A DNA stretch of 64,000 nt from a bacterium (GTDB lineage: Bacteria > Cyanobacteriota > Vampirovibrionia > Gastranaerophilales > JBAXKC01), in assembly GCA_037137535.1 (NCBI GenBank), contig JBAXKC010000005.1, forward strand, positions 38,346 through 102,345. Reading direction: 5' to 3'. The notes under the pieces are model-generated. The model saw nothing but the letters and a program-made list of their open reading frames with translations, was not told where the DNA came from and did not search any database. Numbering within the stretch: position 1 is the stretch's first letter; each line of letters opens with the position of its first letter. Below, one piece after another: positions 4,996-45,282 of the stretch. The position numbers and the translations under genes are program-made.

Positions 4996-5412
4996 GTGTG
5001 TCTTTTGACAGTAATTTTAGAATATAGAGAAATTCTTTCAACAGGCATAAAAAAAATTGATGACCAACATAAAAAACTATATCAGCTGATAAATGATTTA
5101 TTTACAGCGTGCGTTAATGGTTATGATAAAGAAATGATTTCTACTATTCTTTCCGATCTTGCCGAGTATATTGACGTTCATTTTAAAGATGAAGAAGATA
5201 TAATGCAGTCTGTGGGCTACTCTGATTTTTTAATTCATAAATCGGAACATGATAAATTTTATAGTCTTGTTGTAGGGATTTTGAAAGAGTATGAATTAAC
5301 AGGTGTAACTGATAATTTAATAAATGATACAAAGAAACTTTTAGTAGACTGGCTTTTAAGTCATTTAAATCATTTTGATAAAAAGTTGGCAATTTTCATC
5401 AAATCTCAGTAA
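4996..5412 (+). CDS. Hemerythrin-like metal-binding protein
   Basis: IDDQHKKL, HFKDEEDIM (HxxxE), HKSEHDKF (HxxxH), HLNHFD (HxxxxD). The longest ORF starts at GTG 4996. TTG at 5005 is better spaced (8 nt) from the GAGG RBS. Confidence 0.8.
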   Translation: MCLLTVILEYREILSTGIKKIDDQHKKLYQLINDLFTACVNGYDKEMISTILSDLAEYIDVHFKDEEDIMQSVGYSDFLIHKSEHDKFYSLVVGILKEYELTGVTDNLINDTKKLLVDWLLSHLNHFDKKLAIFIKSQ

Positions 5413-5752: not shown

Positions 5753-7066
5753 ATGGTTAGCAAAATAGATAACTCAAAATTGTTTGAAAAATTTGCTTTG
5801 AAGCCACAGCAACAGCAAGCTCCTGCTCCTGTGACACAGCAGGCTGAAGTTGTTCCTGTTCAGGTTCAAAAGGAAATGGAAGGGGTTCAAGCAAAGACTC
5901 ACGAGCCAAAGCAAGATGAACTTAACATCGGGCATGCATCGGATCACATGGTTTCTAATGATGCTCTTACAAAAATGAAAGTCCAAGTCGAAAAGACATC
6001 AAAGCTACCTGAATACGCTATTAGGGGAATGAAAGGCGATCAGGATGCTAATTTCTATGAGTTTTTAGAATTAGGTAAAGTTCCTTATTTTCTTGGTGGT
6101 GCTGTTTTAACTGCATGTTATGCTGCCGGTGGTAAGGGGGCTGCTCCATTTGTAACAAGAATGGGAGCCGGTGCTGCATTTTTCTATACAGCTGCAATGT
6201 TAGGAAAGAATGCTATTGCTCTTCCTGTTCAGTTATTAAGAGGTATTGATCTTAATCATCCTTACAGAGATATTGTAGATTGTAGAGCAGTAGATGCTCA
6301 AGGTACATCTCCGAAAAAGAAAGAATATCACAAAGTATTTGAAAGTATCGACTTTACAAGATGGGATCTTCTTGAAAATCATGAAAAAGGAGATGTTAAA
6401 AACAACCCAAGGCTTATTAACGCTAAATATGACCGTATCGCTAAGAAAATGGGCATAAAAGAAAAAGACCTTAATGACTCAGATAGCACATTAAGAGCTT
6501 ATATCAAGAAAACACTTGTCATGAGTAAAGCTGCTCAATATATGAGTATAGCTTTATTTGCACCACTAGCTATTGGTGTAGCTAATGTTCGTGAAATGGA
6601 ATCACTTGGTCATAATATGTTTGGAGATATTGCTAAACATCTTGCAAAGCCTAAGGCTGACGCTACTATTGCCTCAACAACAAAGGATGTGTTCAGTATT
6701 ATAAAATCTGCTACAACTGATGTTATTGGTAGATCCTTTAAATCACTATGGACAGGTGAGGGTAATACGCATACTATAAAGGGTGTTAAAAATACAATAG
6801 GAAGCGTGAAAACATCTGACCTCTTTAAGCAAATGACAGGTGGAGAGTTCTTCCAATCATTAAATGGATTGCTTAAGAAACATGGCGGAAAAGCATTAAT
6901 CCTTGCTCCGTTAGTAACATCAGTAGCCGCAAACGCATGGATTTACTTCCACACAAATGCAGGCAAGAAAAAAGTATTACCTGCCGCAGAGTTTGCTATC
7001 GATAAGCAAAGACTTGCTGAACAATCAGCTCAAGGGGACAACACTCAACAAGTTAAGCCACAGTAG
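5753..7066 (+). CDS. Polytopic membrane protein, unknown family (paralogous to N-terminal part of next gene)
   Basis: GAGG RBS about 9 nt upstream. Q/P-rich N-terminus (KPQQQQAPAPVTQQAEVVPVQVQ). Four hydrophobic Gly/Ala-rich segments, e.g. VPYFLGGAVLTACYAAGG, GAGAAFFYTAAMLG, YMSIALFAPLAIGVANV and ALILAPLVTSVAANAWIYF. Confidence 0.65.
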   Translation: MVSKIDNSKLFEKFALKPQQQQAPAPVTQQAEVVPVQVQKEMEGVQAKTHEPKQDELNIGHASDHMVSNDALTKMKVQVEKTSKLPEYAIRGMKGDQDANFYEFLELGKVPYFLGGAVLTACYAAGGKGAAPFVTRMGAGAAFFYTAAMLGKNAIALPVQLLRGIDLNHPYRDIVDCRAVDAQGTSPKKKEYHKVFESIDFTRWDLLENHEKGDVKNNPRLINAKYDRIAKKMGIKEKDLNDSDSTLRAYIKKTLVMSKAAQYMSIALFAPLAIGVANVREMESLGHNMFGDIAKHLAKPKADATIASTTKDVFSIIKSATTDVIGRSFKSLWTGEGNTHTIKGVKNTIGSVKTSDLFKQMTGGEFFQSLNGLLKKHGGKALILAPLVTSVAANAWIYFHTNAGKKKVLPAAEFAIDKQRLAEQSAQGDNTQQVKPQ

Positions 7067-7083
7067 GGTTAGGGGATATTAAA

Positions 7084-9813
7084 ATGGTTAACATTAATCG
7101 AAATCTCACATTTACAAATGCAGACTTGATTAAAAAACAGTTTCAGATGAAGCCGTCTAATCAGCAAGCTCAACCTGCTCCTGTGGTTGAAAATAGTCCG
7201 CAAAAAGCTAATCAGGAATTGATTGCAGATACATTAAAATTAAGAAACGTTGAGCCTGACAAACCAAAAGGTAAAACATTTAACAGAGGTCTTCTTCAGT
7301 GGCCACAAGAAATATATGAAACCAACGTTAAAGGTGCAAAAGTTCTTTGGAAAGCTATGGCTAAAGGCGAAGGCAACGATAAAGATATCGGAAGCCTTAA
7401 CGATTTAGCGTTAGGTTTGGGCAGTTTAGGTATTGCTGCTGCTTTAGCACTTAGACCTAAGGCTTCCCCTGCCGAAAGAGCTATGGAATTTGCCGGTTTT
7501 GGAACATGGTTTGCAGCGCAAGCTATTTGGCCAAAAACTATTCTCGCAGGACCTGTTAAATTTTTTACCGGTGTAGATATTAATAAAACTTATCAGCATA
7601 GTGAAGGCAAAATTAATAGAACGCTTACTGATCCTCAATATATTCCTTGGGATCACTATACTCAAAAAGAATATGATGAAGTTGGTAAAAAATGTCATAT
7701 TCCTGAAAATATCAAAGATAGAAATAAACATGTTCAAAATAAAATCAGACAGGTTGGCGTTCAGTCAAATACTTTATGGATGCTGACAGCAGGTTTTTCA
7801 ACTCCGTTAATTTCCAGTTTATTTGCTGATAGATTAAGACCGGCTGTTGCAGGTGGTCTTGAGATGGTAAATGAAACAAAAAATTCTATGAAGTTATTCG
7901 GATTCAAGAAAACACTTCACGATAGAATTGATAGAGCTCTTCAAAATCTTGAACATAAGATGATTCCTAACGCTACAGGTAACGGATTAGGTTCTGTGGG
8001 TAGAGGTGTTCAAAACTTCTTCATTAGTGCTGATAATATGTTAGGAACTATTAAAAAGCCTATTTTATCCACAGTTCAACATCTTGTCGGCTATAAGCCT
8101 GAAGAAGCATTAAAAGGTTTTGATTCTAAAGCTGAATCTATTTCTAAGAAAACTGCTGAGCAAATGGAAAAATTACTTGAGTCTAATCCTAATAAAGAGA
8201 AAATGACAAGTGAATTAGCAAATATGTTTAAAGATTCTAGTGAATTAGGTTCATTTAGACATACTGACTTATTTAACAGTATTGTTAAAACTGTATCTTC
8301 TAAAATGGATGAAATTCCTGGAAAAGATGCGACTAAACAAGCAGAGCTTAAAAAACAAATCGTTAGTGTTGTTTCATCGGCTAAGAAATTTGTTGAGATG
8401 GCAAAAGATGTTGAAGGCTATGCTAAAACAACACTCGGTAATTACGCTGATACAACTATAGCTCACGCTTGGGATCAAGCTCCTAGAGAAATGATGGATG
8501 CTTTAAGACTTCCTAATGCTGTAAGAGTTAAATTACAAAGTGTTAACGGTCAAACTCCTAATGGTATAAGTGCAGTTGCTCTTGAAATTTCTGATTATAT
8601 TCATAAACTTCCTGCTGCTGAAAGAGAAGAAGTTAAAATTGCATTAGATAATGTTATTCATAAGCACGATAGTAAGTTATCAGGAATGGCTGAGAGAGTA
8701 GGTGTTGTCTTTACTGAAGGAGGAGCTAAAGAGACTGAAAATGGTGTAATGCAAAAATTAAGAGCATACTCTAAAGACCTTAGCACTCAACTTTATGATA
8801 GTGATGATTTTAAAACAGCAAATATTTATATGGATAATCTGAGTAATATGGTCAGAGATCGTATTATGAATACAAAAAATTCCTTCCATAAAATGCCTGT
8901 GTTATTTGAAGCTCATACAAAAGAAGTTGAATTAATTGCTGAGTATAATAAAAAGAATCCGACTAAAGCTATTGATCTTAAAAATGGCGTGACTAATATA
9001 GTAATGGAATTGTCAAGTAAACCTAAGGAAGCACTTAACGATCATGAAAAAACATTACTTGAGGGTCTAACTAAATCAATGAAGTTTAAGAGTACTTTTG
9101 ATCCGCATAACTTAATGACAGTTGACAAAGGTGTAAGTTTAGATGAATTCTTAAATAAATGCAGAGCGATTTATGGAAGTAATCCTGCAACAGAAGCTAA
9201 AGGCACTATAAATGAGATGTTAAATCAATTATTTGTGTCAATGTATAAAATTGAGGATACAGGTAAGGATCTCAGTAAATGGACAGAGGCAGCTCTTACT
9301 GATTTATTAAAAGGTGATAATCAATTAGCAAAACAATTAAAATCTGCAAGTGGTGATGACCTTAAACATATGCTTGAGGCTAATGATCACCAGTTAGAAA
9401 AAACGATTAATTCTCATTTGGGTGAATTATTTAATCAAGCTAAGTCAACAATGACAGAAAAAGGTTTAATATCACTTACTGAAGATTCAATTAAAGCTAT
9501 ATTTAATGAAACCTTTAATAAAGCGGGTATTGATGTTTCTCATTCGTTAAAAACACAAGCATTTATTGAAGAAAAAGCTGATGCTCTTGCTCCAAAACTT
9601 AAATCAGCTGGAGCTTGGTTAGGTAAAGCTCTTGATAAATTTATCGCAGATGCAGCAGGTGAGACTGTACTTTACAGAGGTTGGTTGACAAAAGTCGGTA
9701 GTGCATTCGCTGTTCTTACAGGTGTAACATTAATCGCTTCATCAATGATGGGCAAGAAAAACAAATATAATCCGGGTGTCTATGAGGTAAGGGAGACCAA
9801 GAAATATGAATAA
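7084..9813 (+). CDS. Large membrane protein, unknown family (N-terminal domain paralogous to 5753..7066; long helical region; C-terminal TM anchor)
   Basis: AGGGGA RBS. N-terminus MKPSNQQAQPAPVV. TM segments LALGLGSLGIAAALAL, FAGFGTWFAAQAIW, LWMLTAGFSTPLISSLFA and a C-terminal VGSAFAVLTGVTLIASSMMG. Motifs G(I/V)D(L/I)N, W-D and YD..(A/G)KK are shared with the upstream gene. Confidence 0.65.
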   Translation: MVNINRNLTFTNADLIKKQFQMKPSNQQAQPAPVVENSPQKANQELIADTLKLRNVEPDKPKGKTFNRGLLQWPQEIYETNVKGAKVLWKAMAKGEGNDKDIGSLNDLALGLGSLGIAAALALRPKASPAERAMEFAGFGTWFAAQAIWPKTILAGPVKFFTGVDINKTYQHSEGKINRTLTDPQYIPWDHYTQKEYDEVGKKCHIPENIKDRNKHVQNKIRQVGVQSNTLWMLTAGFSTPLISSLFADRLRPAVAGGLEMVNETKNSMKLFGFKKTLHDRIDRALQNLEHKMIPNATGNGLGSVGRGVQNFFISADNMLGTIKKPILSTVQHLVGYKPEEALKGFDSKAESISKKTAEQMEKLLESNPNKEKMTSELANMFKDSSELGSFRHTDLFNSIVKTVSSKMDEIPGKDATKQAELKKQIVSVVSSAKKFVEMAKDVEGYAKTTLGNYADTTIAHAWDQAPREMMDALRLPNAVRVKLQSVNGQTPNGISAVALEISDYIHKLPAAEREEVKIALDNVIHKHDSKLSGMAERVGVVFTEGGAKETENGVMQKLRAYSKDLSTQLYDSDDFKTANIYMDNLSNMVRDRIMNTKNSFHKMPVLFEAHTKEVELIAEYNKKNPTKAIDLKNGVTNIVMELSSKPKEALNDHEKTLLEGLTKSMKFKSTFDPHNLMTVDKGVSLDEFLNKCRAIYGSNPATEAKGTINEMLNQLFVSMYKIEDTGKDLSKWTEAALTDLLKGDNQLAKQLKSASGDDLKHMLEANDHQLEKTINSHLGELFNQAKSTMTEKGLISLTEDSIKAIFNETFNKAGIDVSHSLKTQAFIEEKADALAPKLKSAGAWLGKALDKFIADAAGETVLYRGWLTKVGSAFAVLTGVTLIASSMMGKKNKYNPGVYEVRETKKYE

Positions 9814-11773
9814 CGTTCAAAATAACAATAATCAGTTTATTGTAAAACTTCCTTTGAATAAAACTAATCAGCCGTTACCTCAACAGCCTGTGTATGTTGC
9901 TCCTGCGGCTACACATGTGAATCAGCAGCCAAATCAGGTAGTTTATGCAAATAATATTCCTAATATTTTCTTTAAATCACCACAACCTCAAAAAGCTGTT
10001 GTTGCTCCACAAGTAGCTCCACAGCAACAAGCTAATACTCAATCAATGTCGTCAGATTGGGTTTCAAGTTGGATAAAAGTTAAAATGCCTGCAGCGGCTA
10101 ATGCTTCAACAGCAGTAGCAAAGGCTGCTCCGGTTCAGAAAATATCTGATGTGAAACTTGATCCGAATTTTCATTGGAAAAACGACCTTAGGCAGTTATT
10201 CCACGAAAATAAAGCTTGTATTATGGCAGTGTTAATGAATACATTCAATGCTAAAGATAAAGATGGTGACAGATTAATTCAACCGTCTAAAGGTGAAGAA
10301 TTCGGCACTTGGTATAATGGTATCGAGCGTCTTGATGAGATGAAAGCATTAGGTATTAATACATTACACATTCTTCCTCCAAACCCACCCGGTGCAAAAG
10401 GTGCTATGGGGAACAACGGTTCAAGATATGCTGTTGATGATTATACTAAATTAGATCCAATGCTTGATGATCCAAAATGTCCTCTTGGCGTGGAAGATGA
10501 AGCAAAATTATTCATTCAGGAAGCTCATAAACGTGGTATCAGAGTAATGTTTGACCTTGCAAGCTGTTTCTCAATCGATCAGTTTGAAAAATCTGCTGCT
10601 AATCAAGATAAAAATCCTGCAACTCCAAAAGTAGCTGTAAATCCTGACGGTACACCGGCTATTCCTCAAGGTTGGGAAGACATTAGAATGATGGATCCTT
10701 GGGAAGATAAAGATAAGAGAATTTTACACAAAGGCTTGATGGATTATCATAAAAAATTCATTGATTTGGCACAAAGAATTGGTGTTGATGGTATCAGAGC
10801 TGACGTTGCAAGAGCGAAACCTGTTGAATTCTGGAATGAATTAATTGCATATTCCAGAAGTAAAGATCCAAACTTCTGCTGGTTAGCTGAAAGCTATTGT
10901 TATGAAGATGCCTCACCAATGCAAAACGTACCTGCTGATAGACCTGAAGAGCTGTTAAAAGTTGGTTTCGATTCATACTATGGTCAAGATCACTTATTCC
11001 CATTATGGAAAAACAGTAAAGATTTCCATGACAATATGCTTCTAAACCTTGATCTTTCACATAAAGTAGGGCCTAATAAGTCTGTAATCGGTTCAATGCA
11101 TACCCATGATGATAGAAGTCCTATGTCAAACGGTGGCGCTCCATACTGTTGTTTAACAGCAGGCGCTCAACTTACATTACCGATGACTAATCCATACTTT
11201 ACAATCGGTTTTGAATCAGGTGACAGATATTTATATCCATACGATGGCAAGCCTGTTCAAGGTTGGGCAAGAACAGACTCTAAAACCTATGTAACTCATA
11301 GTGAGTTTATCGACATCTTTAATACGTCAGATAAACCGCATGGCGATAATCCTGAAATCGGCCAATATATGACTGATATGACAAAAGTTAGAAAGCAATA
11401 TGAAGATGTTATTACCAAAGGTTCTTACATTCCGTTAAAAACTACTAATAAAGAAGATTTAATTATCGGTTATGCAAGACACTATAACGGTAAAACCTTA
11501 CTTGCTATTGCTAACAAAGATGTAAATGCTGTTCAGCAAGGAAAAGTGAAAGTACCAACTTTAAAAGAAGGACAAGTTCTTAAAGATCTTTCACCTGCTT
11601 ATGGTGCACCAAGTAATTATGTCGCTAAAAACGGAGAAGTTGACGTAGAACTTGGACCAGCTAGATTCCATCTTTTTGAAATTGATACACCTGAAATAGA
11701 AAAAGCTGCTGATGGCGTATATTCTCAAAACCTTGATTTATCTATGTATGAACAAACTCCAATAAAAGATTAA
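9806..11773 (+). CDS. Glycoside hydrolase family 13 (alpha-amylase superfamily) protein with about 110-aa Q/P-rich N-terminal extension
   Basis: GH13 conserved regions: GINTLHILPP, VDGIRADVARAK (region II, nucleophile Asp), CWLAESY (region III Glu), SMHTHDDRS (region IV HD). The start overlaps the upstream stop by 8 nt (ATGAATAA). No signal peptide is visible. Confidence 0.8.
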   Translation: MNNVQNNNNQFIVKLPLNKTNQPLPQQPVYVAPAATHVNQQPNQVVYANNIPNIFFKSPQPQKAVVAPQVAPQQQANTQSMSSDWVSSWIKVKMPAAANASTAVAKAAPVQKISDVKLDPNFHWKNDLRQLFHENKACIMAVLMNTFNAKDKDGDRLIQPSKGEEFGTWYNGIERLDEMKALGINTLHILPPNPPGAKGAMGNNGSRYAVDDYTKLDPMLDDPKCPLGVEDEAKLFIQEAHKRGIRVMFDLASCFSIDQFEKSAANQDKNPATPKVAVNPDGTPAIPQGWEDIRMMDPWEDKDKRILHKGLMDYHKKFIDLAQRIGVDGIRADVARAKPVEFWNELIAYSRSKDPNFCWLAESYCYEDASPMQNVPADRPEELLKVGFDSYYGQDHLFPLWKNSKDFHDNMLLNLDLSHKVGPNKSVIGSMHTHDDRSPMSNGGAPYCCLTAGAQLTLPMTNPYFTIGFESGDRYLYPYDGKPVQGWARTDSKTYVTHSEFIDIFNTSDKPHGDNPEIGQYMTDMTKVRKQYEDVITKGSYIPLKTTNKEDLIIGYARHYNGKTLLAIANKDVNAVQQGKVKVPTLKEGQVLKDLSPAYGAPSNYVAKNGEVDVELGPARFHLFEIDTPEIEKAADGVYSQNLDLSMYEQTPIKD

Positions 11774-12126: not shown

Positions 12127-14049
12127 TTATGTTAATTTAGCTATTTTTTCCGCTAGCTGAGCAATTTCCTCACAGTTATCAGCAGAAACATTTATAAGTT
12201 TAGTTATTTCAGTCATTTCTTTACCAGCTTCATTCATGTTAGTTTCAAGTTTGTCTGAAATTTTATTCATTAACTCTACTTGCTTCTGAATTATGGATTC
12301 ACTAGATTTAGTTGAATCTACAACTTCTTTAGATTGTTCAGAAAGTTTTCTTACTTCATCCGCTACAATTGCAAAGCCACGTCCATGATCACCCGCACGA
12401 GCTGCTTCAATAGAAGCATTAAGTGAGAGTAAATTTGTCATACCTGCTATATTTACAATTTCTTTTGATGCTTCAATAAATTCATTAACGCTTTGTTCAA
12501 CACTATAAATACTATTTTTTAAATCACTTGAGGTTTTAATAAGATTAATTATTTGTTCTTTTATTTGTTCCGTATTTGCACTATTTTCTTTATTTGAATT
12601 AGCGACATTTAATACTTTTTCTATAATCTTATCCACATTTGTTTTAAGAATAGTTGATGATTCCTCTTTTTCTGCATTAATTTCCTGTAATTCTGCTGTC
12701 ATTTGTTGTAGTTTACAATTTTGTGCATTTATCATGTCATGTTCTATTTTAAGCTCTTTTTTATTATAAAATATGCAGTTTTTTAAATGATTAGTATTAT
12801 TAAATATAGAAAGGGCCATATTTTTACAATTGCCATATCCGCAAGCATTACAGTTTATGTTTTTATCTTTTTCAGTATATTTATGCAGTTTTATAAATAC
12901 TTCATTCAATTCGCTTTGATTTGGAATTAATATTTTTACATCAGAAGATTTATTTTTGTATTTTCTAATAAAATCATTCAAGTCTATTTCTTTGTTAAAC
13001 ATATCAAATAAAGGATAGGTATTTTTATTAAATATATTCTTTGAGCTTTTTTCTTTGATTTTTTGTTTTTTTGCTAAATTCATTTTATTATCAAGATCAT
13101 CTATGTGACGATCTTTACATGTCCCTGTCCCCAAATTGCAGCCGAAAGAACAGTTTAAAATATCTACAATAAGAGGCAAATTTTTATTTTCTTTTACTCT
13201 TTTATTATATGAATCAAGGTAACTATATGCATGCTCATTACCTTCTACCTGTCTTACCCAGGCATCAGGTATATGGAATTCTACGTTTTCTCTAAGACCA
13301 CCTGGTCTTGAGAAGGTTAAGCCTAATCCACATCCGATATCATCAAAGTCTGTTTCTTCATAGCTATTTAGGTTTATATTATTTCTTTTTAAATAATTCT
13401 CTATTTTTTTATAGGTAATATTATATGAAATATAACCATTAGTATTGGGATCATTAAATTCATCTGTTTTTCCAAGACAAGGTGATAAAAAGGCTATGTT
13501 ATCATTTATTTTTTTATAATTTTTCATGTAAATAGCAGTACAGAGAGCAGGACTATGAACAGGTGAGGTTTTTTCGATTAATTCAGGTTTGTATTTTTCT
13601 ATATAATTAACAATTGCAGGACAAGGCTGTGCAATGACAGAGTCTAAATTTTTAGTAGTAATCGCTTTGATATAAGCCCATGTACATAGATCAGCACCAA
13701 ATGACACATCATATATTAAATTTATACCTTTGCTTTTAAAAAATGAAAAAAGTTTTTTGTAATTGTCAAAATTCAACCTTGCTGCAGGAGCTGCAACAAT
13801 GGATAATTTTTTACCTTTTTTTAAATCTTCAAAAAATAATTCTGTATCATCATTATATCTACGAGCATTATGATCACATTCCTCTATACAATGTCCACAA
13901 TTTATACATTTATAAGGATCAACTTTAATTTTATTATCGTTGTTTTCGTCTAAATAGGCTATATTGGCGTATATTGCAGGACAACCATTTATGCATTTAT
14001 TGCAACCGACACAATTCTCTTCAATTGTGTAAACAATATTATTCTTCAT
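12127..14049 (-). CDS. Soluble methyl-accepting chemotaxis protein with N-terminal 2x[4Fe-4S] ferredoxin + [FeFe]-hydrogenase-like H-domain sensor
   Basis: Ferredoxin motifs [12 protein letters not shown] and [12 protein letters not shown]-cluster-like motifs AQPCPA (L1), [10 protein letters not shown] (L2) and [13 protein letters not shown] (L3). An extra Cys cluster, CNACGYGNC...C. C-terminal MCP tip motif [35 protein letters not shown]. No TM helix. Confidence 0.85.
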
Positions 14050-15251: not shown

Positions 15252-15979
15252 AGTGGTTTCTTTTTAGGTATTCCTGCCTTACGTGGATAATGAGAGGAAG
15301 TGTTCCCGACTTTCTTTATTATTAGTATATTTCTATCAGTATTTTCTATTGAATAATCTATTTGTTTTACAGACTCGCCTTTGAGGGTCTGTAAAGCTTT
15401 TTGGGCTTCGTTAAGTTCTTCTTGAGCTTCTTTTGCTTTATATGCTGCAAATATACCGTCCTTTTTAACAAATGGCAGGCAATATTCGCATAGTATATTA
15501 AGTCGACTTACTGCTCTTGCAACAGAAATATCAAATTTTTCTCTCATTTCGACAGTATGTGCCAGATCTTCCGCTCTTCCGTTTACTGTTTTAATTCGGT
15601 CTGTTAATTCTAATATTTCTGCCAATTCTTTAATAAAGTTAATTTTTTTACCAACTGAATCCACAGCAGTTAAAGTCCATGTGTCAAATAAAATAATCAG
15701 CGGAACTCCAGGAAAACCACCACCACAGCCAATATCAATAATAGAAAGGTTCTTTTTTTCTCTAATTTCTTCATCAAGATATAAGGAAATAGAGTCTGCG
15801 AAATGCTTTGTCATAACTGTTTCATAGCTTGCATCGCTGACTATATTTGTATGTTCGTTAAACTTATTTAAAAATTCAAAATATTTTCCGAAAAGTTCAA
15901 TTTGCTTTTCGTTTAATTCAATATCAAATTCTTTTATTTTATTTATTAAAAGTTCCATAATTTTATCGTCCTTTAGCAT
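15248..15979 (-). CDS. rsmG: 16S rRNA (guanine527-N7)-methyltransferase RsmG (GidB)
   Basis: SAM-binding motif IIDIGCGGGFPGVPL, the N-terminal L...Q...F..Y...L..WN-like region, and ARAV. Typical length. Alternative start at 15958 (MELLINK). Confidence 0.9.
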   Translation of the reverse strand: MLKDDKIMELLINKIKEFDIELNEKQIELFGKYFEFLNKFNEHTNIVSDASYETVMTKHFADSISLYLDEEIREKKNLSIIDIGCGGGFPGVPLIILFDTWTLTAVDSVGKKINFIKELAEILELTDRIKTVNGRAEDLAHTVEMREKFDISVARAVSRLNILCEYCLPFVKKDGIFAAYKAKEAQEELNEAQKALQTLKGESVKQIDYSIENTDRNILIIKKVGNTSSHYPRKAGIPKKKPL

Positions 15980-18650
15980 TCTTTATTCGTTCCATAATAA
16001 TATTAAAACGAACTTCTCCTATTTCATTCATTATTTGTCTTATTTTTCGGTCAATTTTTTCAGAGCTGTCTGTAGAAATTGTAGCTCCTATGGTTTTTCT
16101 TGAGAGGATAAAGTTTTTTAGAGATTTTTCATAATCTCTTACATTTAAGAAAAAATCGCCAAGATCAAATAAGGAACCTGCAACAAGATAAATATCTTTA
16201 GAGCTTTTTGCTGATTCTAGTCCCATATTCAAATAATCAAGGGCTTTATCATTATTACCTTGGTAAATATATATATTTGCAAGTTTATTAATTGTTTTAT
16301 ATTCACCATCAAAGTTTTTATTTATTCTGTCAACATTTAATGATTTCTGATAAAAGTTTAGTGCATTATCAAAGTTGTTATTTTCTTCATAAATAGCCGC
16401 AATATTTGCTAATGCTTCCGCTAAGAAAATATTTTGTTCAATATTTTGAAATTCAGCACATTTTTTATAATATTCCAAAGCTTTTGAAATATTATTCATA
16501 TCATCATAAACCAGAGCCAGTTTGAATGCAGTAAGAGCATATTGTTCTTTACTTTGAGCTGTTTCATTTTTTTCTGCAAATTGAAGTGATTTTAAATAAT
16601 AAGTTATAGCAAGTTCAGCATTTTTCCTGTAATCATAAATCTCCGCTAATCCTGTGTATGCCTCTGATAGTATTTCATTATTCAGATTATTATTTTTGTC
16701 ATTAATAACTCTTTTAAAGGCTTTTAGTGCTTCGTCATGTTTATAACTTTCGCTATAGGCATTACCAAGCATATTATTTACTTTATTTGCGGTTATATAG
16801 TCATTTTCTTGTTGATAAAAGTCTATTGACTCATTATAATAAACCGCTGCATCTTCATATTTATGCATTTCGGCTAAAATATCAGCTATTTGTATAGATA
16901 TTTGAGCAACTTGTTTTTTATCTCCTAATGATTTTGAAAGATTTAATGCTTTTTTATATTGATAAAAAGCTAAATCAAGTTTATGTGCTTTTTGAAACTC
17001 ATCTGCTTTTTCAAGTAATTCTTTTCTTTCTTGTGTAGGTGAAATCTTTTCTTCTTGTTCGGTTGTTTGATCATTTTCTTGAAAAAATATTGGAATAATT
17101 AATTTTGACGGGTCAGTTTTTTCTCTTGATAAATCTTCATTAATAGATTCTTCTTCTAATAATTTTTTTTCATCATCAGAAAGTTCAAAACCTAAATCAT
17201 CGTCATCCATGTCTTGAATGGTTTCGATTAATTTCTTTTTGAAATTATTGTCTATATTTACTGTTTCGTTGTCTTCAAAGTTTAAGACACTTTCTTCATT
17301 TGTATTTTCAATGTTTTTACTTTGTTGTTTCTCTTGTTTATTGGGATTTTTCTGTGCAGGAGGCATTTGTGATTTTTTAAAATCATAAAATTGATTTGGA
17401 GTTGATGCCAATATATTAAAATTGGTTTTAAATTTCGTGCTTATTTTATAGTGATAATATTGTTCTGTGTGTAAAAGTTTTCGAGAAAGAGTTATTTCTC
17501 TTTCATTTATTGGTTTTGGTATTTGATTTGAGTAAAATTCATGTAAGAAATTATGAATTTTACCTTTTTCATTTGTGGCAATATGTTTATATATAAGATT
17601 TTTAATCATAGGCTTAATGTAGTAATTACCGTTATTATCGGTTACTATCATAAGCTCTTTGAGTTTATTTATTTTGTGTTCTAAATCACCTTCCGCATTA
17701 AGTTTTTGCAGTAGGCTTATTTTTACGGGGTGTCTTAATGCTGATAAAAACCTGCATAATTTTATACAATCTTGCGGAATAATATCATATATTTTTTCTA
17801 TAATATATTCTTCAAAACTTTCTTTTCTTGACGAATATTCTCCAATTAAATCAAATGGTGTTATTTTTAAGTTTATTACACCATTTATAAACCATAATAA
17901 ACTTTCAGGATAACCTCTAGTTATTTCAAAGGCCTGATAAAGTGTGTTTTCATAGCCTATTAAATTATGATCTTTAAATATTTGCAACGCATGGTTATCA
18001 TCAAGGCCGCCCAGCTTTATGCGAGAACTGTTTTTCTCGTTAAGGTTAAGTCCTGATACCAATAATTTTTGCGAAGAAATAATTAACTTAATATTTGGAA
18101 ATTTAAGTAAATAGTTCAAAAACTTTGCTATTTCTTCATCGGCAAAGTTGAAATTTTTGTCGGTTAAAAACTCTAATGAGTCTATAGCTATAATTAACGG
18201 TCTTTTTAAGTTTTTTATATACTCTATAACTTTTCTATCAATGGATAAAGTTGATGAAGCTTTTATATCACGGGCAAGCTCTGTGTTTTTTTTGAAGAAT
18301 TTATTCAAATAAGAATATAAAGAAACGATTATATCATCGAGATTAGTTATTTGTGAGCATTCATAATAAAAACGTAAAATAGAATCATCAAGGCTAAGAA
18401 AAAGTGATTTTATAAATTCTGTTTTTCCTACTCCATAAAATCCATTTATAACTAAAGCTTTTCTCATCTCTGAATTTATTGTTCTGATGGCTTCTTTAAA
18501 GTGTTCATTTCGATTTATTAAAATATAAGGTGTGTTTTTATTGATATGTTTTACTTTTGCTTTGTTTAAAACGTCTAAAATTCCGTCAAATTCTTGTATT
18601 GACGGGCTAATATTGTCGGTTAATGCAGTTTTAAAGAAAGATTTTCTCAT
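15963..18650 (-). CDS. STAND/AAA-type P-loop NTPase with acidic linker and C-terminal TPR array
   Basis: Walker A INGFYGVGKTEF; Walker B-like PLIIAIDSLEF. Acidic low-complexity linker (QDMDDDDLGFELSDDEKKLLEEE). About 8 TPR-like repeats follow (A..YY..S..........A...LG..Y). Confidence 0.7.
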   Translation of the reverse strand: MRKSFFKTALTDNISPSIQEFDGILDVLNKAKVKHINKNTPYILINRNEHFKEAIRTINSEMRKALVINGFYGVGKTEFIKSLFLSLDDSILRFYYECSQITNLDDIIVSLYSYLNKFFKKNTELARDIKASSTLSIDRKVIEYIKNLKRPLIIAIDSLEFLTDKNFNFADEEIAKFLNYLLKFPNIKLIISSQKLLVSGLNLNEKNSSRIKLGGLDDNHALQIFKDHNLIGYENTLYQAFEITRGYPESLLWFINGVINLKITPFDLIGEYSSRKESFEEYIIEKIYDIIPQDCIKLCRFLSALRHPVKISLLQKLNAEGDLEHKINKLKELMIVTDNNGNYYIKPMIKNLIYKHIATNEKGKIHNFLHEFYSNQIPKPINEREITLSRKLLHTEQYYHYKISTKFKTNFNILASTPNQFYDFKKSQMPPAQKNPNKQEKQQSKNIENTNEESVLNFEDNETVNIDNNFKKKLIETIQDMDDDDLGFELSDDEKKLLEEESINEDLSREKTDPSKLIIPIFFQENDQTTEQEEKISPTQERKELLEKADEFQKAHKLDLAFYQYKKALNLSKSLGDKKQVAQISIQIADILAEMHKYEDAAVYYNESIDFYQQENDYITANKVNNMLGNAYSESYKHDEALKAFKRVINDKNNNLNNEILSEAYTGLAEIYDYRKNAELAITYYLKSLQFAEKNETAQSKEQYALTAFKLALVYDDMNNISKALEYYKKCAEFQNIEQNIFLAEALANIAAIYEENNNFDNALNFYQKSLNVDRINKNFDGEYKTINKLANIYIYQGNNDKALDYLNMGLESAKSSKDIYLVAGSLFDLGDFFLNVRDYEKSLKNFILSRKTIGATISTDSSEKIDRKIRQIMNEIGEVRFNIIMERIKNAKGR

Positions 18651-26433: not shown

Positions 26434-27138
26434 TATAATTCCTAGAAAATCATACAAAACTTTTAATTATTTTTATTGTATTATCCACCCGCAATTACTT
26501 TAAGTTTAAAAATTACAAGTAATTATGGGAGTGGTTAATGTTTAAATACGTATTTCTTAATACGTCAAAAATATCTTCAATTACTAATATACTATAACCT
26601 GATAATAATGTACTAATTCATTAAGCTAATATTAAGACTGTATCAATATAGAATGAATTTATTAATGTCATTTACTCGTATCTCTACTGAATAATTATCT
26701 TTATGCCGTATGTAATTATTACAAAGAATGCCTTTTAGTTTTTAAATAGTTATTTTTAGTATGGTCGAACTGATAAGTTTTCGTTAAAGAATGTTTTTTT
26801 AAACTATCCATGCAAATAGGTAATAGTGGTAATGCTATAAGTCGTTTGTAAGCTTCATAATCATTTGTAAATAAATGAAACATGTTAATACCTTTGAGTT
26901 TACTAAATTAAAACTTTATTACGAGGTTAGAAAAATAAATAAATGTTAAATAAGGTATTAAAAAAAATAAATGAAGTCAGTTGTAGATAAATGTAATCTT
27001 TGCTTGATATATCGATTACACATTTAGCATGTTTCTAAAAATAGTGCTAAAACTAAATATTTAGTTATAGGGATGGTAGTTTTCAGGATGAGGAACCAGG
27101 TTATTCATTCTGGTAGAAAACAAAGGGAGGAAACTAGT

Positions 27139-29052
27139 ATGAGTTTCAAAAAAATGACATTAGCAGCAGCTATTACAATAGGTATGGTTGCAGTTGGCGG
27201 CGCTGCAAGAGCGGCAGATTTGAATGGTGCAACAATTCCTACATCATCAGATGCTTGTACACCAAGTAATATAATCTCTTCTCAGCAGGTTAATTGTCCG
27301 GTCAGCGGTACTTGTCCTGCTATGTCCACAGATGGTAAACTTGATTATTCAGAAAGACAAGTTTATGCGTTCCCTAATTTAAGTGGGCAAAACCTTGTAA
27401 TTCCTAATGAGAATACAATGGTTCAATTAGGTCAATCATCTGATGTAAGTGTTCCGACTAAAAACAATATTACAGGTGCGGCAGCTCCTATTGGTCAAAA
27501 TGGTGTAATTTTGAACAATAGAGCAGGTGTTGGAATCGCAGGACAAACCGTAAACCTTTCAGAAGAAAATACAGGTTGTTGCCCTGATTCAAAAAAAGCA
27601 GAAGCAGAACAGCCTAAGAGAACAGGTGCAGCTGCAGCAGTAGATGAGTCTTGTGCTCCTGTTAATCCTTGTACAGGCGGTGCAGCTCCTGCTAATAATA
27701 CTTTCCAATCAAGTTCAGGACTTCAAATTGAAAAGAAAATTCCTGAATGTGAATTAGAACAAATGAGAAAAACAGGTGCAGCCGCTGCAATAATTCCAAA
27801 TCAATTTACTGATGTAAGTTCTGATTTCTGGGCAAGTAATCAAATTAACTTGCTTGGTTCAAAAGGAATTTTGGCAGGATATCCTGACAGAACATACAGA
27901 CCAACACTTCCAACATTAAGATCTGAATTTGCAAGTATGGTTGTTGCAGGTTTAAATCTTGAAGGAACACAAGCTTATTCCGAGAAAAAATTTAAAGATG
28001 TTCCTGAAAATCACTGGGCTAGAAATGATATTTATAAAGCCTATAATCAAGGTTATATGAATGGTTATTCCGATAATACTTTCCGTCCGTCAGAAACTAT
28101 TTCCAGAGCTCAAGCGTTTAATTCATTCGCAAAAGCATTACCAGGTAAAATGACGGCTCAGGAAGCTCAAGGTGTATTAGCATCTTATGCTGATAATAAT
28201 ACTGTTCCTGATTGGGCTAAAATTGGTATGGCAGAATCTATTAGTGCAGGATTAACTAAAGATTCACCTGATCCTACAAGATTAAATCCTAATAAAGATG
28301 CTTCAAGAGCTGAAATGGCAGCAGTTATTGCTCAATTAAGACAAACATTAGCCCTTGATCCATCTAATATTCCTACGGGAGCAGCTTCTGAAATACAAAC
28401 ATTCCCTACACTCAGCTTGAAATTTAATGATATGTTACATGCTAGAGGTAGTCATATTGGTGATACTTTCGTAGCAGAAACTCAAGATCAGGTTACAATA
28501 AACGGACAAGTATACCCAACAGGCTCTAAAGTTCACGGTAAAATTGTTGAAGTTGTTATGCCTAATTTAGATAACAAAGGTTCAGTAAAACTTGCCTTTG
28601 ATACTATCGAAGATAATGGCCATAAAGCTGATTTACCTAAACAAATTTTATCAGCAGGTATTACAAGAAGTGATAATGTAAATATTATCGCAAGAGCTGT
28701 ACAATTCCCATTTGTATGGCCTGGTAAACTTGTCGGTACAGCAGGAAGATCAGTTTCTAATATTGGTATAATTGCTTCCAATACAGTTCAAGAGATGATG
28801 GGTGCTACCGGTTTTGCGGCTGGTCACGTATTCTCTGGTGAATTTGGCGCAGCAGGAAGAAACACTTATGAAGTTGGTAAATCACTTGCTATGGGCGTAG
28901 TTGATACAGGTAAAACTGTAATTAGCGGTACCGTAGGACTATTCAAAGAATCAGGTGATGAATTAACTTATATTGTATCTCCTGATACATTACAAGTATC
29001 AAGCATCAACCCTGATGAAGTTGTTCAAGTTGCATTTGGTTGCCCTCAATAA
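27139..29052 (+). CDS. Secreted S-layer-homology (SLH) domain protein with unclassified C-terminal domain
   Basis: GGGAGG RBS before ATG 27139. Signal peptide MSFKKMTLAAAITIGMVAVGGAARA. Three SLH repeats (FTDVSSDFWA..GILAGYPDRTYRP; FKDVPENHWA..GYMNGYSDNTFRP; a third ending ASRAEMAAVIAQL). Confidence 0.8.
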   Translation: MSFKKMTLAAAITIGMVAVGGAARAADLNGATIPTSSDACTPSNIISSQQVNCPVSGTCPAMSTDGKLDYSERQVYAFPNLSGQNLVIPNENTMVQLGQSSDVSVPTKNNITGAAAPIGQNGVILNNRAGVGIAGQTVNLSEENTGCCPDSKKAEAEQPKRTGAAAAVDESCAPVNPCTGGAAPANNTFQSSSGLQIEKKIPECELEQMRKTGAAAAIIPNQFTDVSSDFWASNQINLLGSKGILAGYPDRTYRPTLPTLRSEFASMVVAGLNLEGTQAYSEKKFKDVPENHWARNDIYKAYNQGYMNGYSDNTFRPSETISRAQAFNSFAKALPGKMTAQEAQGVLASYADNNTVPDWAKIGMAESISAGLTKDSPDPTRLNPNKDASRAEMAAVIAQLRQTLALDPSNIPTGAASEIQTFPTLSLKFNDMLHARGSHIGDTFVAETQDQVTINGQVYPTGSKVHGKIVEVVMPNLDNKGSVKLAFDTIEDNGHKADLPKQILSAGITRSDNVNIIARAVQFPFVWPGKLVGTAGRSVSNIGIIASNTVQEMMGATGFAAGHVFSGEFGAAGRNTYEVGKSLAMGVVDTGKTVISGTVGLFKESGDELTYIVSPDTLQVSSINPDEVVQVAFGCPQ

Positions 29053-37698: not shown

Positions 37699-39033
37699 TT
37701 ATCTTACGCTCATACCTTCATTTAAGTATTTAATCAGTGGGTAAATAAAGAACTCTATAATTCTTCTTTTTCCAACTTTGATTTCTGCACTTAAACTCAT
37801 ACCTGTTTTGAGATAAACTTTTTTACTTTCAACCATCAACGACTTATCGATAGGTGTTATGTAAACTTCATAGATAAGTCCTGCTTTCGGGTCTTGAATA
37901 CTGTCTTCTGAGATGCTTTTTACTTTTCCTTTTAAAATTCCGTACTTTTGGAAATCAAAGGTATCAATTTTAAGAGCTACCGGCATTCCTTCATGAATAA
38001 AGCCTATATCTCTGTTTTCAGCTGTGGCTTTAATTACAAGAGGAGTGTTTATCGGAACAATTGACATTAATTTTTCTGCTGACGTTACAACTCCACCAAC
38101 TGTGTGGACTGAAAGAGTATTAATATAACCATCAACAGGTGAAATAATGCGTTGTTTAGTATTTTTGTAAGTTGCTTCTTTAATTTGTGAAATAAGATCA
38201 GTAGAATTTTTTTGTTTATCAGAAAGTTCTTTTAAATTCTCAGCTTTAAAGTTAGCTCTAATGTATGATTGCTCTTCTAGTGCCTGATTTCTTTGATGAT
38301 GTAACTCATCTAATTTGAAATCAGCTTCTTTTATTTGGCTTTGTAGATTTAAAATATCTGAATGGCATTGATCAACTTCATTTTTTGCAATTATATTTAT
38401 AACTGCATTTAGTCGTCTTTCTTTATCTTTAAGAATAGTTAATTGATTTAAATTATTACTTCTTGAAGCTAAAGTAGATTTAATTTGCTCATCAACTTTT
38501 TTAAGCTCTAATTCTTTTACATCTAACTGTTTTTGCATACTATCCATAGATGAATTGTATAGTTGAGTCTGTGTATTTATTGAATAAACATCAGGTAATT
38601 TTTCACCTGTTGCAGTAGGTGGAACAAATCTAACACCTTGAGATGATGCATCTAACCTTTGTGATTCTAATTGAATATAATCAAGATTTTTTTTCATTGC
38701 ATCAAGCCTAGGAGCGGTAGTTGAAGGATCTATTTCCATCAAAATTTGTCCTTTTTTTACAAAAGAACCCTCTTTTACAAAAATATTAGTTATTACACCA
38801 GTATCTAAAGGTTGAATTACTTTAATATTTCCGTCAGGAATTATCTGTCCTCTTGTTGTTACTACAATGTCAACTTGTCCAAGGACTAACCAGAGTATAG
38901 TGCAAACAAATAAGATAACTACTGTCCAAAACATTGTTCTGCCAATAGGGCTTACAGGTGCATCTTCTATTTCTAATAAAATAGGCTTAAACTCGTGAGC
39001 GTCATCCATTCTCTTAAATAGTTTTTTAAGCAT
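37699..39033 (-). CDS. HlyD-family type I secretion membrane fusion protein
   Basis: N-terminal TM FWTVVILFVCTILWLVLG; lipoyl-like VKEGSFVKKGQILMEID; long coiled-coil; C-terminal beta-barrel block GMSLSAEIKVGKRRIIEFF. Overlaps the upstream ABC gene by 8 nt. Confidence 0.9.
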   Translation of the reverse strand: MLKKLFKRMDDAHEFKPILLEIEDAPVSPIGRTMFWTVVILFVCTILWLVLGQVDIVVTTRGQIIPDGNIKVIQPLDTGVITNIFVKEGSFVKKGQILMEIDPSTTAPRLDAMKKNLDYIQLESQRLDASSQGVRFVPPTATGEKLPDVYSINTQTQLYNSSMDSMQKQLDVKELELKKVDEQIKSTLASRSNNLNQLTILKDKERRLNAVINIIAKNEVDQCHSDILNLQSQIKEADFKLDELHHQRNQALEEQSYIRANFKAENLKELSDKQKNSTDLISQIKEATYKNTKQRIISPVDGYINTLSVHTVGGVVTSAEKLMSIVPINTPLVIKATAENRDIGFIHEGMPVALKIDTFDFQKYGILKGKVKSISEDSIQDPKAGLIYEVYITPIDKSLMVESKKVYLKTGMSLSAEIKVGKRRIIEFFIYPLIKYLNEGMSVR

Positions 39034-41140
39034 TTACCGGCTCCTGTTGTGTGTACAATTTATAATAATAGCCTTTTTTATCTATTAATTCCTGATGTGT
39101 TCCCATTTCAATTATTTTGCCCTCATCTAAAGCTACAATTAAATCGCAACCGACAACAGTAAATAATCTGTGAGCTATAACAAACATAGTTCTGCTGCTT
39201 TTAATCTGTCCGATATTATCTTGAATAATTTTTTCTGATTCGTAATCAAGTGCAGAAGTCGCTTCGTCAAAAATAAGGATTTTAGGATTTGTAATAATAG
39301 CTCTCGCTATTGCTATTCTTTGTCTTTGACCGCCGGAAAGAGTTGAACCTCTTTCACCGACTAGAGTGTCATAACCTTCAGGTAATTTTCTGATAAAGTC
39401 ATGTGCTCCTGCAATTTTTGCACATTCAATTATTAATTCAATTGAAGCATCAGGTTTTGGTAGTGCAATGTTATCTCTTATTGAGCCGCTAAATAAATAA
39501 TTCTCTTGTAATACTATTCCGATATTATTTCTTAACCATACTGGATTCATGTGTCTTGTATCGACATCATCAAGATAAACGGCACCTTCATTAGGAATAT
39601 ATAATCTTTGAATAAGTTTTGCGATTGTACTTTTACCGCTTCCGCTTCTTCCTACAAATCCGACACTCATTCCAGATTCAACCTTAAGGCTAAAATTATC
39701 GATAACATAAGGAGAATTAATATTGTATTTGAATGATAGGTTTTCTATCTTTATTGATCCATTAATGCTTGGTAATGTAATAGCTTTGCTATTTGTCGAT
39801 TCAATAGGGGAATTTAAAATATCACCTAATCTGTCAACACCAAGAAGTGCTTGTTGAAACTCGTTCCATAAACCTACAAGTCTTAAAACAGGACCTGTGA
39901 ATTGACCGGAGAACATTTGAAACGCAATAAGCTGACCTATACTTAGTTTATTATCAATTACAAGTTTAACTCCTAGGTATAGAACTATAATTGACATCAT
40001 TTTTTGAAAAGCTCCACATATTGCTCCAAGCAATACTCCTAAGTTAGCAAGGTTAAATCCTGATTTAACATAAGCACCTAGGTAATCATCCCATTTTTGT
40101 TGCATTGAACCTTCAATTGCAAGAGATTTAACGGTTTGAACTCCTGTAACAGACTCAACTAAATAGGAGTTTGATTGAGCTCCCATTTGAAATTTTTCGT
40201 TTAATCTGTTTCTAAGTTCAGGCGTAACTGTAACATAAAGTAATGCTAATAACGCCACAAATATTATAACTACCACAGATAGCTTAACACTATATAGAAC
40301 CATAAATACAACGAATATTAATGAGAAGAATACGTCAATGATTACTGATACAGCTTTACTGCATATAAAAGATCGAATATTTTCTAATTCTCTTATTCTT
40401 TCAATAATATTTCCGACTTTTCTCGATTCAAAATACATAAATGGTAAACCAAATAGATGTTTGAATAATTTTGAACCCAATTTTGCATCAATTTTGCTGA
40501 CTGTGTGAATAAAGATATAATTTCTTGAAATATTAAGAACAAGTTCAAATAGTGCAGTTCCGATAAAAGCTGCCGCTAATACGTCTAAAGTAAGCATACT
40601 TCTATGAACAATTACTTTATCCATAATTACTTGAGTAAATAAAGGTGTTACGAGTCCAAAAAGCTGAACAATAAACGAACCTATTAAAACTTCTGCTATA
40701 ACACGTTTATACTTTAAAATTTCGACAAAAAACCACTTGAAACCAAATCGAATGCTTTCTGACAACATTTTATGAAAAACTGCAATATATTCAAAAGAAA
40801 GTTCATCTATTTGTTCAAAAGTAAGTTCTTGGGTTACATTTGTATCACTGGCAGGTATATAAAGTAATGCTTTTTCTTCTGCTTTTTTGTCTTTTAACAC
40901 AACTCCGAAAGTATTATCTTTAAAGACTATTACAGCAGGTAACGGGTAATTTTCTATAAATTGACTTATAGGTATTTTTTTTAATTTAGCTTTAAATCCA
41001 TACCTTTTAATGATTTGAAGTAATTGTGCCTTAGATAATTCACTTTCATCTAAACAAAATTCTCTCACTATTGATCGTAGATCTACACTCATTCTACTTA
41101 ATTTAGCAATAATTTCGAAACATAAGAGAGCAGTTTGCAT
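39026..41140 (-). CDS. Type I secretion system ABC transporter (permease/ATPase) with N-terminal degenerate C39-like domain
   Basis: Six-TM ABC exporter core. Walker A GRSGSGKST, signature LSGGQRQR, Walker B ILIFDEATSALD. The N-terminal ~125 aa resembles the HlyB C39-like domain. Confidence 0.9.
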   Translation of the reverse strand: MQTALLCFEIIAKLSRMSVDLRSIVREFCLDESELSKAQLLQIIKRYGFKAKLKKIPISQFIENYPLPAVIVFKDNTFGVVLKDKKAEEKALLYIPASDTNVTQELTFEQIDELSFEYIAVFHKMLSESIRFGFKWFFVEILKYKRVIAEVLIGSFIVQLFGLVTPLFTQVIMDKVIVHRSMLTLDVLAAAFIGTALFELVLNISRNYIFIHTVSKIDAKLGSKLFKHLFGLPFMYFESRKVGNIIERIRELENIRSFICSKAVSVIIDVFFSLIFVVFMVLYSVKLSVVVIIFVALLALLYVTVTPELRNRLNEKFQMGAQSNSYLVESVTGVQTVKSLAIEGSMQQKWDDYLGAYVKSGFNLANLGVLLGAICGAFQKMMSIIVLYLGVKLVIDNKLSIGQLIAFQMFSGQFTGPVLRLVGLWNEFQQALLGVDRLGDILNSPIESTNSKAITLPSINGSIKIENLSFKYNINSPYVIDNFSLKVESGMSVGFVGRSGSGKSTIAKLIQRLYIPNEGAVYLDDVDTRHMNPVWLRNNIGIVLQENYLFSGSIRDNIALPKPDASIELIIECAKIAGAHDFIRKLPEGYDTLVGERGSTLSGGQRQRIAIARAIITNPKILIFDEATSALDYESEKIIQDNIGQIKSSRTMFVIAHRLFTVVGCDLIVALDEGKIIEMGTHQELIDKKGYYYKLYTQQEPVNA

Positions 41141-41382
41141 TAATATTCAACCCCAAATATAAATGATTTCAATAAATTTCATATCAAGCATTAATAGATT
41201 TATAAAAATTAAAAAATTTATTAAATTCTGATAGAACTATAAAATCTTAGCATGAAGACTTAGCCTCATCAATAAAGCCTACTACTTATACAGTATTTAT
41301 ATGACCGTTATTTTTTTATGGAGTCAATCTTTTATATGAATTTTTTTAACAACTTGTCGGATAAATAAAAAATTAAAAAATT

Positions 41383-45280: not shown

Positions 45281-45282
45281 AA

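Follow-up and report, generated by a model that had tools for sequence, protein, structure and literature searches.

The 64,000-nucleotide window analysed here (the whole stretch of DNA that was examined, from contig JBAXKC010000005.1) carries on its reverse strand a gene predicted to encode a cytoplasmic chemoreceptor with a hydrogenase-like sensor (Table 1). A single open reading frame with an ATG start codon specifies a product of 640 residues, in which a ferredoxin-type dicluster domain (Pfam Fer4 match at residues 7-62), with the CxxCxxCxxxC motif present twice (Cys 13/16/19/23 and 48/51/54/58), is followed by an [FeFe]-hydrogenase H-domain (Fe_hyd_lg_C, PF02906, residues 81-307; E-value 1e-26, 94 bits versus a cutoff of 22), by an additional cysteine cluster coinciding with a sub-threshold match to the PF04060 'putative Fe-S cluster' family (residues 398-427; 20.1 bits versus 23) and, within the same reading frame, by the MCPsignal domain (PF00015, residues 510-637; E-value 3e-22, 80 bits versus 34.6) of methyl-accepting chemotaxis proteins (MCPs). 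This is the domain order given in a preliminary description of the locus, and it is borne out by the Pfam matches and the positions of the cysteines; the QPCP (residues 141-144), PCLGK (190-194) and CSFGC (300-304) motifs and the hairpin motif (544-569) also lie where that description had put them. Its claim that the protein has no transmembrane segment holds as well, because the highest 19-residue Kyte-Doolittle mean along the receptor is only 1.13. In view of the E-values, and of more than 120 full-length homologues that have the same architecture (48-73% identity, with the best database match at 73%), the arrangement is not a chance match.

The C-terminal module aligns to the MCP structures of T. 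maritima and E. coli, and its tip sequence is that of the canonical CheA/CheW-binding hairpin, the block N539-L569 being invariant in an alignment of 32 family members. The C-terminal arm is short (about 85 residues, 12 heptads) and no HAMP domain was detected in the receptor. Two candidate methylation sites, AELQEINA at 452 and AEKEESST at 459, match a relaxed consensus only and are not kept in the family consensus.

Table 1. Position and domain layout of the hydrogenase-like chemoreceptor gene in the window.
Feature	Coordinates	Strand	Basis or remark
Whole gene, cytoplasmic chemoreceptor with hydrogenase-like sensor ([FeFe] group C2 type), 640 aa	12127..14049	-	Open reading frame and domains
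2x[4Fe-4S] ferredoxin domain, N-terminal, residues 7-62	13864..14031	-	Pfam Fer4_10/Fer4_7
H-domain core, residues 81-312	13114..13809	-	PF02906, hhalign, Foldseek
L1 variant QPCP, residues 141-144	13618..13629	-	P142 = relay Cys299 position; C143 = C300
L2 SPCLGK, residues 189-194	13468..13485	-	S189 = M353 position; C191 = C355; K194 = K358
L3 NCSFGC, residues 299-304	13138..13155	-	C300 = C499; C304 = bridging C503; preceding L298 = M497 position
H-domain C-terminal extension, residues 313-395	12865..13113	-	Collinear with the CpI C-terminal segment (hhalign to CpI 574); helices in the AlphaFold2 model
Cx2Cx4Cx16C (C400, C403, C408, C425), putative extra [4Fe-4S] site	12775..12852	-	Cys spacing; PF04060 sub-threshold
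Long helical MCP module, residues 426-640	12130..12774	-	AlphaFold2 DSSP helix, MCPsignal, alignment to MCP structures
MCP hairpin tip, residues 544-569 (26 aa), CheA/CheW contact region	12343..12420	-	Invariant family block; aligned to the T. maritima MCP 2ch7/3ja6 tip

The registry of the sensor with the catalytic hydrogenase CpI was established from a profile of the 32 family members, using the local HMMER domain together with a global hhalign alignment; global hmmalign left the L3 segment of CpI unaligned, and the placement of L3 is that of the local HMMER domain and hhalign. Standard CpI numbering applies, since the reference sequence was verified to be 100% identical to PDB entries 1C4A and 3C8Y over residues 1-574. 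The family profile matches CpI at an E-value of 6.6e-26 (HMMER), and hhalign sets receptor residues 1-391 onto CpI 135-574 with a probability of 99.7. All eight cysteines of the ferredoxin domain, invariant in 32 of 32 members, map to the CpI FS4A/FS4B ligands C147/150/153/157/190/193/196/200, and the four H-cluster ligands are equally in place (receptor C143 = CpI C300, C191 = C355, C300 = C499 and C304 = C503), as is the pocket of the [2Fe] subcluster (K194 = K358, E197 = E361, A87-P88 = A230-P231, S166-P167 = S323-P324 and F246 = F417). The residues of CpI that are substituted in the receptor are C299 (P142), M353 (S189), M497 (L298), S232 (A89), E282 (A125) and R286 (A129), and E279 aligns to a gap. 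On this residue map the H-cluster ligand set is complete and the canonical proton-transfer path is wholly gone: the alignment shows a module that keeps every cysteine predicted to bind four clusters, namely the two [4Fe-4S] clusters of the ferredoxin type, the H-cluster ([4Fe-4S]H-[2Fe]H) and a C-terminal one, as well as the residues expected to hold the [2Fe] ligands.

These results uphold what had previously been read from the motifs, namely that a proline replaces the relay Cys299 in L1 with the ligand Cys300 kept, and that L2 and L3 are retained. The accompanying statement that sensory [FeFe] hydrogenases lose the relay cysteine is also documented in the literature: the relay position in these proteins is Cys in 17%, Ala in 43%, and Pro or Ser in about 10% each, the M353 position is occupied by Gly, Ser or Thr, and there is no conservation of M497 (PMC10055695). 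The marks of the catalytic group A/B enzymes, namely the TSCCP motif with its relay cysteine, the E279/E282/R286/S319 path and the NCBIfam score, are missing from the receptor, which has AQPCP instead and lies far under the cutoffs of the NCBIfam models for these groups (TIGR04105, 126 versus 450; TIGR02512, 100 versus 406).

One further cysteine, C170 (window positions 13540-13542), aligns to CpI I327, three residues past P324, and has no ligand counterpart in CpI. It is invariant in 32 of 32 close homologues and present in 130 of the 142 sensors described below, and close to the [2Fe] site it might offer another proton or redox-active residue.

The fold agrees with the sequence assignment. 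With an AlphaFold2 (AF2) model of the receptor (mean predicted local distance difference test score, pLDDT, of 78.6) as the query, the 50 best PDB matches are [FeFe]-hydrogenases without exception (Foldseek probability 1.00, 420-470 aligned columns), and the PDB sequence and fold matches of the H-domain are all true hydrogenases. Residues 313-395 contain helices in the model. The MCP part is drawn by the AF2 monomer as one unbroken helix (residues 426-639), not a hairpin, and this helix is directly preceded by C425, the last of the Cx2Cx4Cx16C ligands.

Named hosts of the full-length homologues include Sporomusa, Oxobacter pfennigii, Alkalithermobacter and Desulfitispora, together with many metagenome-assembled genomes, and the closest of the named homologues carry no other annotation than '[Fe-Fe] hydrogenase large subunit C-terminal domain-containing protein' or 'methyl-accepting chemotaxis protein'. 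A profile scan of genome contigs was swamped by the generic MCP tip pattern IEAARAG[ED]xG, and four full-length relatives (L003-L006) were among the matches listed. When the sensor part (residues 1-440) was used by itself, an exhaustive search recovered 646 clusters (50% identity) at E<=1e-30. The sensor module is N-terminal in all of the best 150 of these 646 representatives, and 54 of the best 150 have an MCP tail; among 57 other representatives that were scanned, the outputs comprise HisKA (26), HATPase_c (25), receiver (20), GGDEF (15), PAS_9 (14), EAL (4) and SpoIIE (3) domains. Sensor identities across the module representatives are 37-60%. When 142 sensors are placed on a neighbour-joining tree, the MCP/non-MCP label must change at least 29 times, compared with 43 times on average and never fewer than 37 for shuffled labels, although this count of output switches is crude and is inflated by truncated proteins. 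Throughout the 142 sensors the four H-cluster cysteines and the four cysteines of the C-terminal cluster are conserved without exception, and the lysine at the K358 position is conserved in 141; the relay position is Pro in 128, the M497 position Leu in 138 and the M353 position Ser in 129. Because the ligand cysteines are conserved while the outputs change, the module reads as a signal-input domain, and judged by these relatives it is a dedicated one, plugged onto every major bacterial output, among them MCP, histidine kinase, GGDEF, EAL and PP2C domains.

HD and STAS outputs also occur on the QPCP-type sensor (representatives P0249-P0398). The representative closest to the sensor of the window (P0249, 59% identity) is a PAS-HisKA-HATPase-REC hybrid kinase and has no MCP part.

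The UvrA encoded in the window shares 77-78% identity with proteins of Candidatus Gastranaerophilales, ACD20 and Melainabacteria GWF2_37_15, and the source DNA (GC 31%) is found in freshwater and lake metagenomes. Melainabacteria have been described as H2-producing fermenters that require low H2, with chemotaxis in environmental members (PMC3787301), and Tpq-Mel-01, of the Gastranaerophilales, has HydABC, HydE, HydG, flagella and che genes (PMC5877343). Unrelated genes lie on both sides of the receptor gene, which looks monocistronic; around it, scans gave 12 promoter-like sites, versus 18.9 in shuffled sequences, and no convincing terminator. In three relatives of 56-58% identity (L085, L087 and the P0016 ENA contig), a gene for cofactor-independent phosphoglycerate mutase (iPGM) and then a response-regulator gene lie upstream of the receptor gene, a microsynteny that is absent from the window.

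We favour, with modest confidence, the reading that this protein is soluble, probably forms a homodimer and acts as a chemoreceptor, with a non-catalytic, sensory [FeFe]-hydrogenase of the HydDB C2 type as the input through which H2 would control CheA. H2 sensing by the receptor is likely, and the cell can probably use it to direct its movement according to hydrogen. The receptor would not be a discovery in kind. Group C2 of the [FeFe] hydrogenases, 'Chemotactic (putative)', was catalogued in HydDB (Sondergaard, Pedersen & Greening 2016; PMC5037454), and our literature searches found no characterised MCP-linked member, so that the preliminary description was right to say that such proteins had been noted bioinformatically only. 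The class has thus been catalogued since 2016 and is uncharacterised, the present receptor is a further instance of it in a new host lineage, and specialists will not be surprised by it.

Two putative sensory [FeFe] hydrogenases, TmHydS and TamHydS, are the only ones characterised so far (PMC10055695; PMC6984386; PMC13104023). These HydS enzymes take up the H-cluster and react only slowly with H2 (PMC10055695; PMC6984386; PMC13104023), and the Cx2Cx4Cx16C motif is a hallmark of the M2e/M2f HydS enzymes (PMC6984386; PMC13104023). In the receptor, HydEFG maturation would install the [2Fe] subcluster in the H-domain; the H-cluster would then bind H2 and slowly split it by heterolysis, and the redox and protonation state of both H-cluster and accessory clusters would follow the local H2 level. 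A resulting conformational change would travel via the mini-domain of the C-terminal cluster, whose final ligand, C425, stands where the signalling helix begins, and the MCP hairpin would then modulate CheA/CheW and bias motility. For an H2-producing fermenter needing low H2, the response would most plausibly serve to steer the cell off H2 build-up or toward H2 consumers. A wider proposal, which we put forward tentatively and with some lean towards doubt, is that the QPCP-type module is a mobile, general-purpose H2-input domain, and that with H2 as chemoeffector an H2-inhibited Melainabacterium swims to H2-consuming partners.

Several observations weigh against hydrogen sensing by the receptor. 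The CpI variant M497L, which carries the substitution represented by L298 in the receptor, was reported to lack a properly integrated [2Fe]H (PMC10055695), and AF2 confidence is low at residues 241-250 and 303-313, the loops expected around the [2Fe] site. The C-terminal cluster of TamHydS is not reduced under 1 atm H2, which speaks against a redox relay through that cluster, and one genome-mining study set C2 hits aside because they had not been validated as hydrogenases. Neither HydEFG genes nor che or flagellar ones were found in the 64-kb window and approximately 20 kb beyond it, of a 94-kb contig. Finally, a metatranscriptome from the same sample, in which the organism is active, covers the neighbouring genes but has a depth of approximately zero over most of the receptor gene; a few partial metatranscriptome contigs match at 13.3-14.0 kb and may derive from homologues.

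Some of these points belong equally to the main rival, which holds that the receptor is a redox, energy-taxis or gas sensor working via its [4Fe-4S] clusters only, with an H-domain that binds just a cubane in the manner of Nar1/NARF; in a variant of the same idea, the metal site senses O2, CO, NO or the ferredoxin pool and the MCP reports the cellular redox state. We consider the two, taken jointly, unlikely. The impaired [2Fe] integration of CpI M497L (PMC10055695), the lack of maturase genes in the parts of the contig examined and the failure of C2 hits in the validation checks of the mining study are all in keeping with an Fe-S-only sensor, as is the near-universal occurrence in the sensor clade of the changes at C299 (Pro), M497 (Leu) and M353 (Ser), and the N-terminal ferredoxin domain could exchange electrons with ferredoxin. 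However, K358, E361, P231, S323-P324 and F417 serve only to hold in place the [2Fe] subcluster with its CN ligands, and they are conserved across sensors that share as little as 37-60% identity. Also difficult to accommodate is that named homologue hosts are anaerobes (Sporomusa, Oxobacter pfennigii, Alkalithermobacter), which we take to encode [FeFe] hydrogenases. In addition, TmHydS and TamHydS bind a functional H-cluster despite comparable substitutions (PMC10055695; PMC6984386), and Melainabacteria are reported to carry [FeFe] hydrogenases (PMC3787301; PMC5877343).

The output, as opposed to the input, is at issue in a second alternative, in which the same sensor acts through an MCP that feeds a Che-like pathway with a non-flagellar output, for example type IV pili, as in the cyanobacterial Tax/Pix systems, or one unrelated to motility. 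The host's group is sister to Cyanobacteria, type IV pili are encoded by Melainabacteria as well (PMC5877343), flagellar and che genes are absent near the gene in the window, and the same sensor is wired to many non-motility outputs elsewhere. Despite these points we judge this alternative improbable, because the hairpin tip is the canonical CheA/CheW-binding sequence, because flagella and chemotaxis genes are reported in environmental Melainabacteria (PMC3787301; PMC5877343) and because, in a relative of 59% identity, the receptor gene lies directly upstream of motA-motB-fliL-fliM-fliY-cheB-cheR. That the protein is instead a catalytically active hydrogenase, with a C-terminal coiled coil for oligomerisation or localisation only, is scarcely credible, for although its cluster complement is complete and TmHydS, with Ala at the relay position, keeps measurable activity (PMC10055695), the entire canonical proton path is missing, the NCBIfam scores are far under the group A/B cutoffs, the MCP tip is as well conserved as in true receptors and the module is shuffled among signalling outputs.

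The remainder of the window holds several features recorded here in their own right. A NarL/LuxR-type response regulator gene is followed by a gene for a hemerythrin-domain protein, and a second hemerythrin gene lies 3.4 kb downstream (337-1587 and 4996-5412, forward strand); binding of O2 or NO by these hemerythrin proteins, in a presumed anaerobe, is possible. An orthologous NarL/LuxR regulator (52% identity) stands divergently beside the C2 receptor gene in relative L087. Three tightly packed, overlapping open reading frames of 437, 909 and 655 aa follow (5753-11773, forward strand), the first two without a Pfam or NCBIfam match and the third with a Q/N/P-rich N-terminus and a weak match to an alpha-amylase catalytic domain; this block is the best covered part of the region in the same-sample metatranscriptome (contig depth of about 8-9). 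Immediately downstream of rsmG is a gene for an 895-aa AAA/STAND-like NTPase with TPR repeats (15963-18650, reverse strand). The only radical-SAM protein of the window (gene at 44378-45280) was considered as HydE and rejected, as it is an AmmeMemoRadiSam enzyme (257 bits versus a cutoff of 220); its gene adjoins those for an M20 peptidase and a YjgF/RidA-like protein (44378-46590, reverse strand). At 37699-42729 and 61732-64000 lie the genes of a type I secretion set, formed by an HlyD-family protein, an ABC exporter that carries a C39 peptidase domain and a TolC-like outer membrane efflux protein, and also the gene of an RTX-repeat protein, which runs past the window end and measures 992 aa on the full contig. 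A 659-aa SLH-domain protein (27073-29052, forward strand) is consistent with a diderm envelope tethered by SLH domains, and the SLH, TolC and RTX/type I secretion genes indicate a diderm host.

If the receptor does mediate H2 taxis, an H-cluster would be seen for the first time in a taxis receptor, and a sensory [FeFe] hydrogenase would for the first time have a known signalling partner, being fused to it. The MCP-fused class is a good handle on the question whether [FeFe] hydrogenases of groups C and D truly sense H2: because its partner is part of the same chain and its output (CheA activity or swimming bias) is easily measured, the class gives a direct functional assay of whether an H-cluster senses H2. 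For fermenters that produce H2, Melainabacteria among them, H2 taxis would be a mechanism for establishing syntrophic contacts.

Compared with the catalytic enzymes CpI (PDB 3C8Y/4XDC) and CbA5H, with which it has in common the fold, the FS4A/FS4B clusters, the four H-cluster cysteines and residues K358, E361, P231, P324 and F417, the receptor has AQPCP in place of the TSCCP of CpI, lacks the C299/E279/E282/R286 path, has Ser for M353 and Leu for M497, and is without the N-terminal FS2 and FS4C domains of CpI, whereas a fourth cluster motif and the MCP module are added. Among chemoreceptors, the soluble MCPs and the redox/energy-taxis receptors Aer and Aer2 have the same canonical hairpin tip, no periplasmic domain and an intracellular, cofactor-based sensor coupled to CheA, but the sensor of Aer/Aer2 is a PAS-FAD or PAS-heme domain and that of the receptor a hydrogenase module of about 430 residues with multiple clusters. 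The concept of a hydrogenase turned H2 sensor is also realised in the regulatory [NiFe] hydrogenases (group 2b, HoxBC-HoxJ; group 2c, linked to diguanylate cyclases) (PMC5037454); these, however, belong to an unrelated metalloenzyme family, form multi-subunit complexes and have transcription or c-di-GMP, not taxis, as their output.

Also related to the receptor are TmHydS (group C, M2f) and TamHydS (group D, M2e), which share with it the N-terminal 2x[4Fe-4S] domain, an H-domain that has all ligand cysteines and no relay cysteine, M353 and M497 positions taken by small or altered residues, and a Cx2Cx4Cx16C motif in the C-terminal part. The relay position is Ala in both HydS proteins and Pro in the receptor, the M497 position is Ser in TmHydS and Leu in the receptor, and the output is a PAS domain in TmHydS, none in TamHydS and a fused MCP hairpin in the receptor. 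The 2026 study of TamHydS closes on the need to find out with which partners it interacts and how it signals; for the receptor, the downstream partner (CheA/CheW) is predictable because the MCP hairpin is covalently fused. The closest known counterpart is HydDB group C2, likewise an H-domain protein proposed to sense H2 and to signal via a methyl-accepting chemotaxis domain, a description that the architecture of the receptor matches. The copy in the window comes from a freshwater Melainabacterium and, relative to the C1-C3 scheme of HydDB (kinase-, MCP- and phosphatase-linked), the same sensor is found here on GGDEF and EAL outputs as well.

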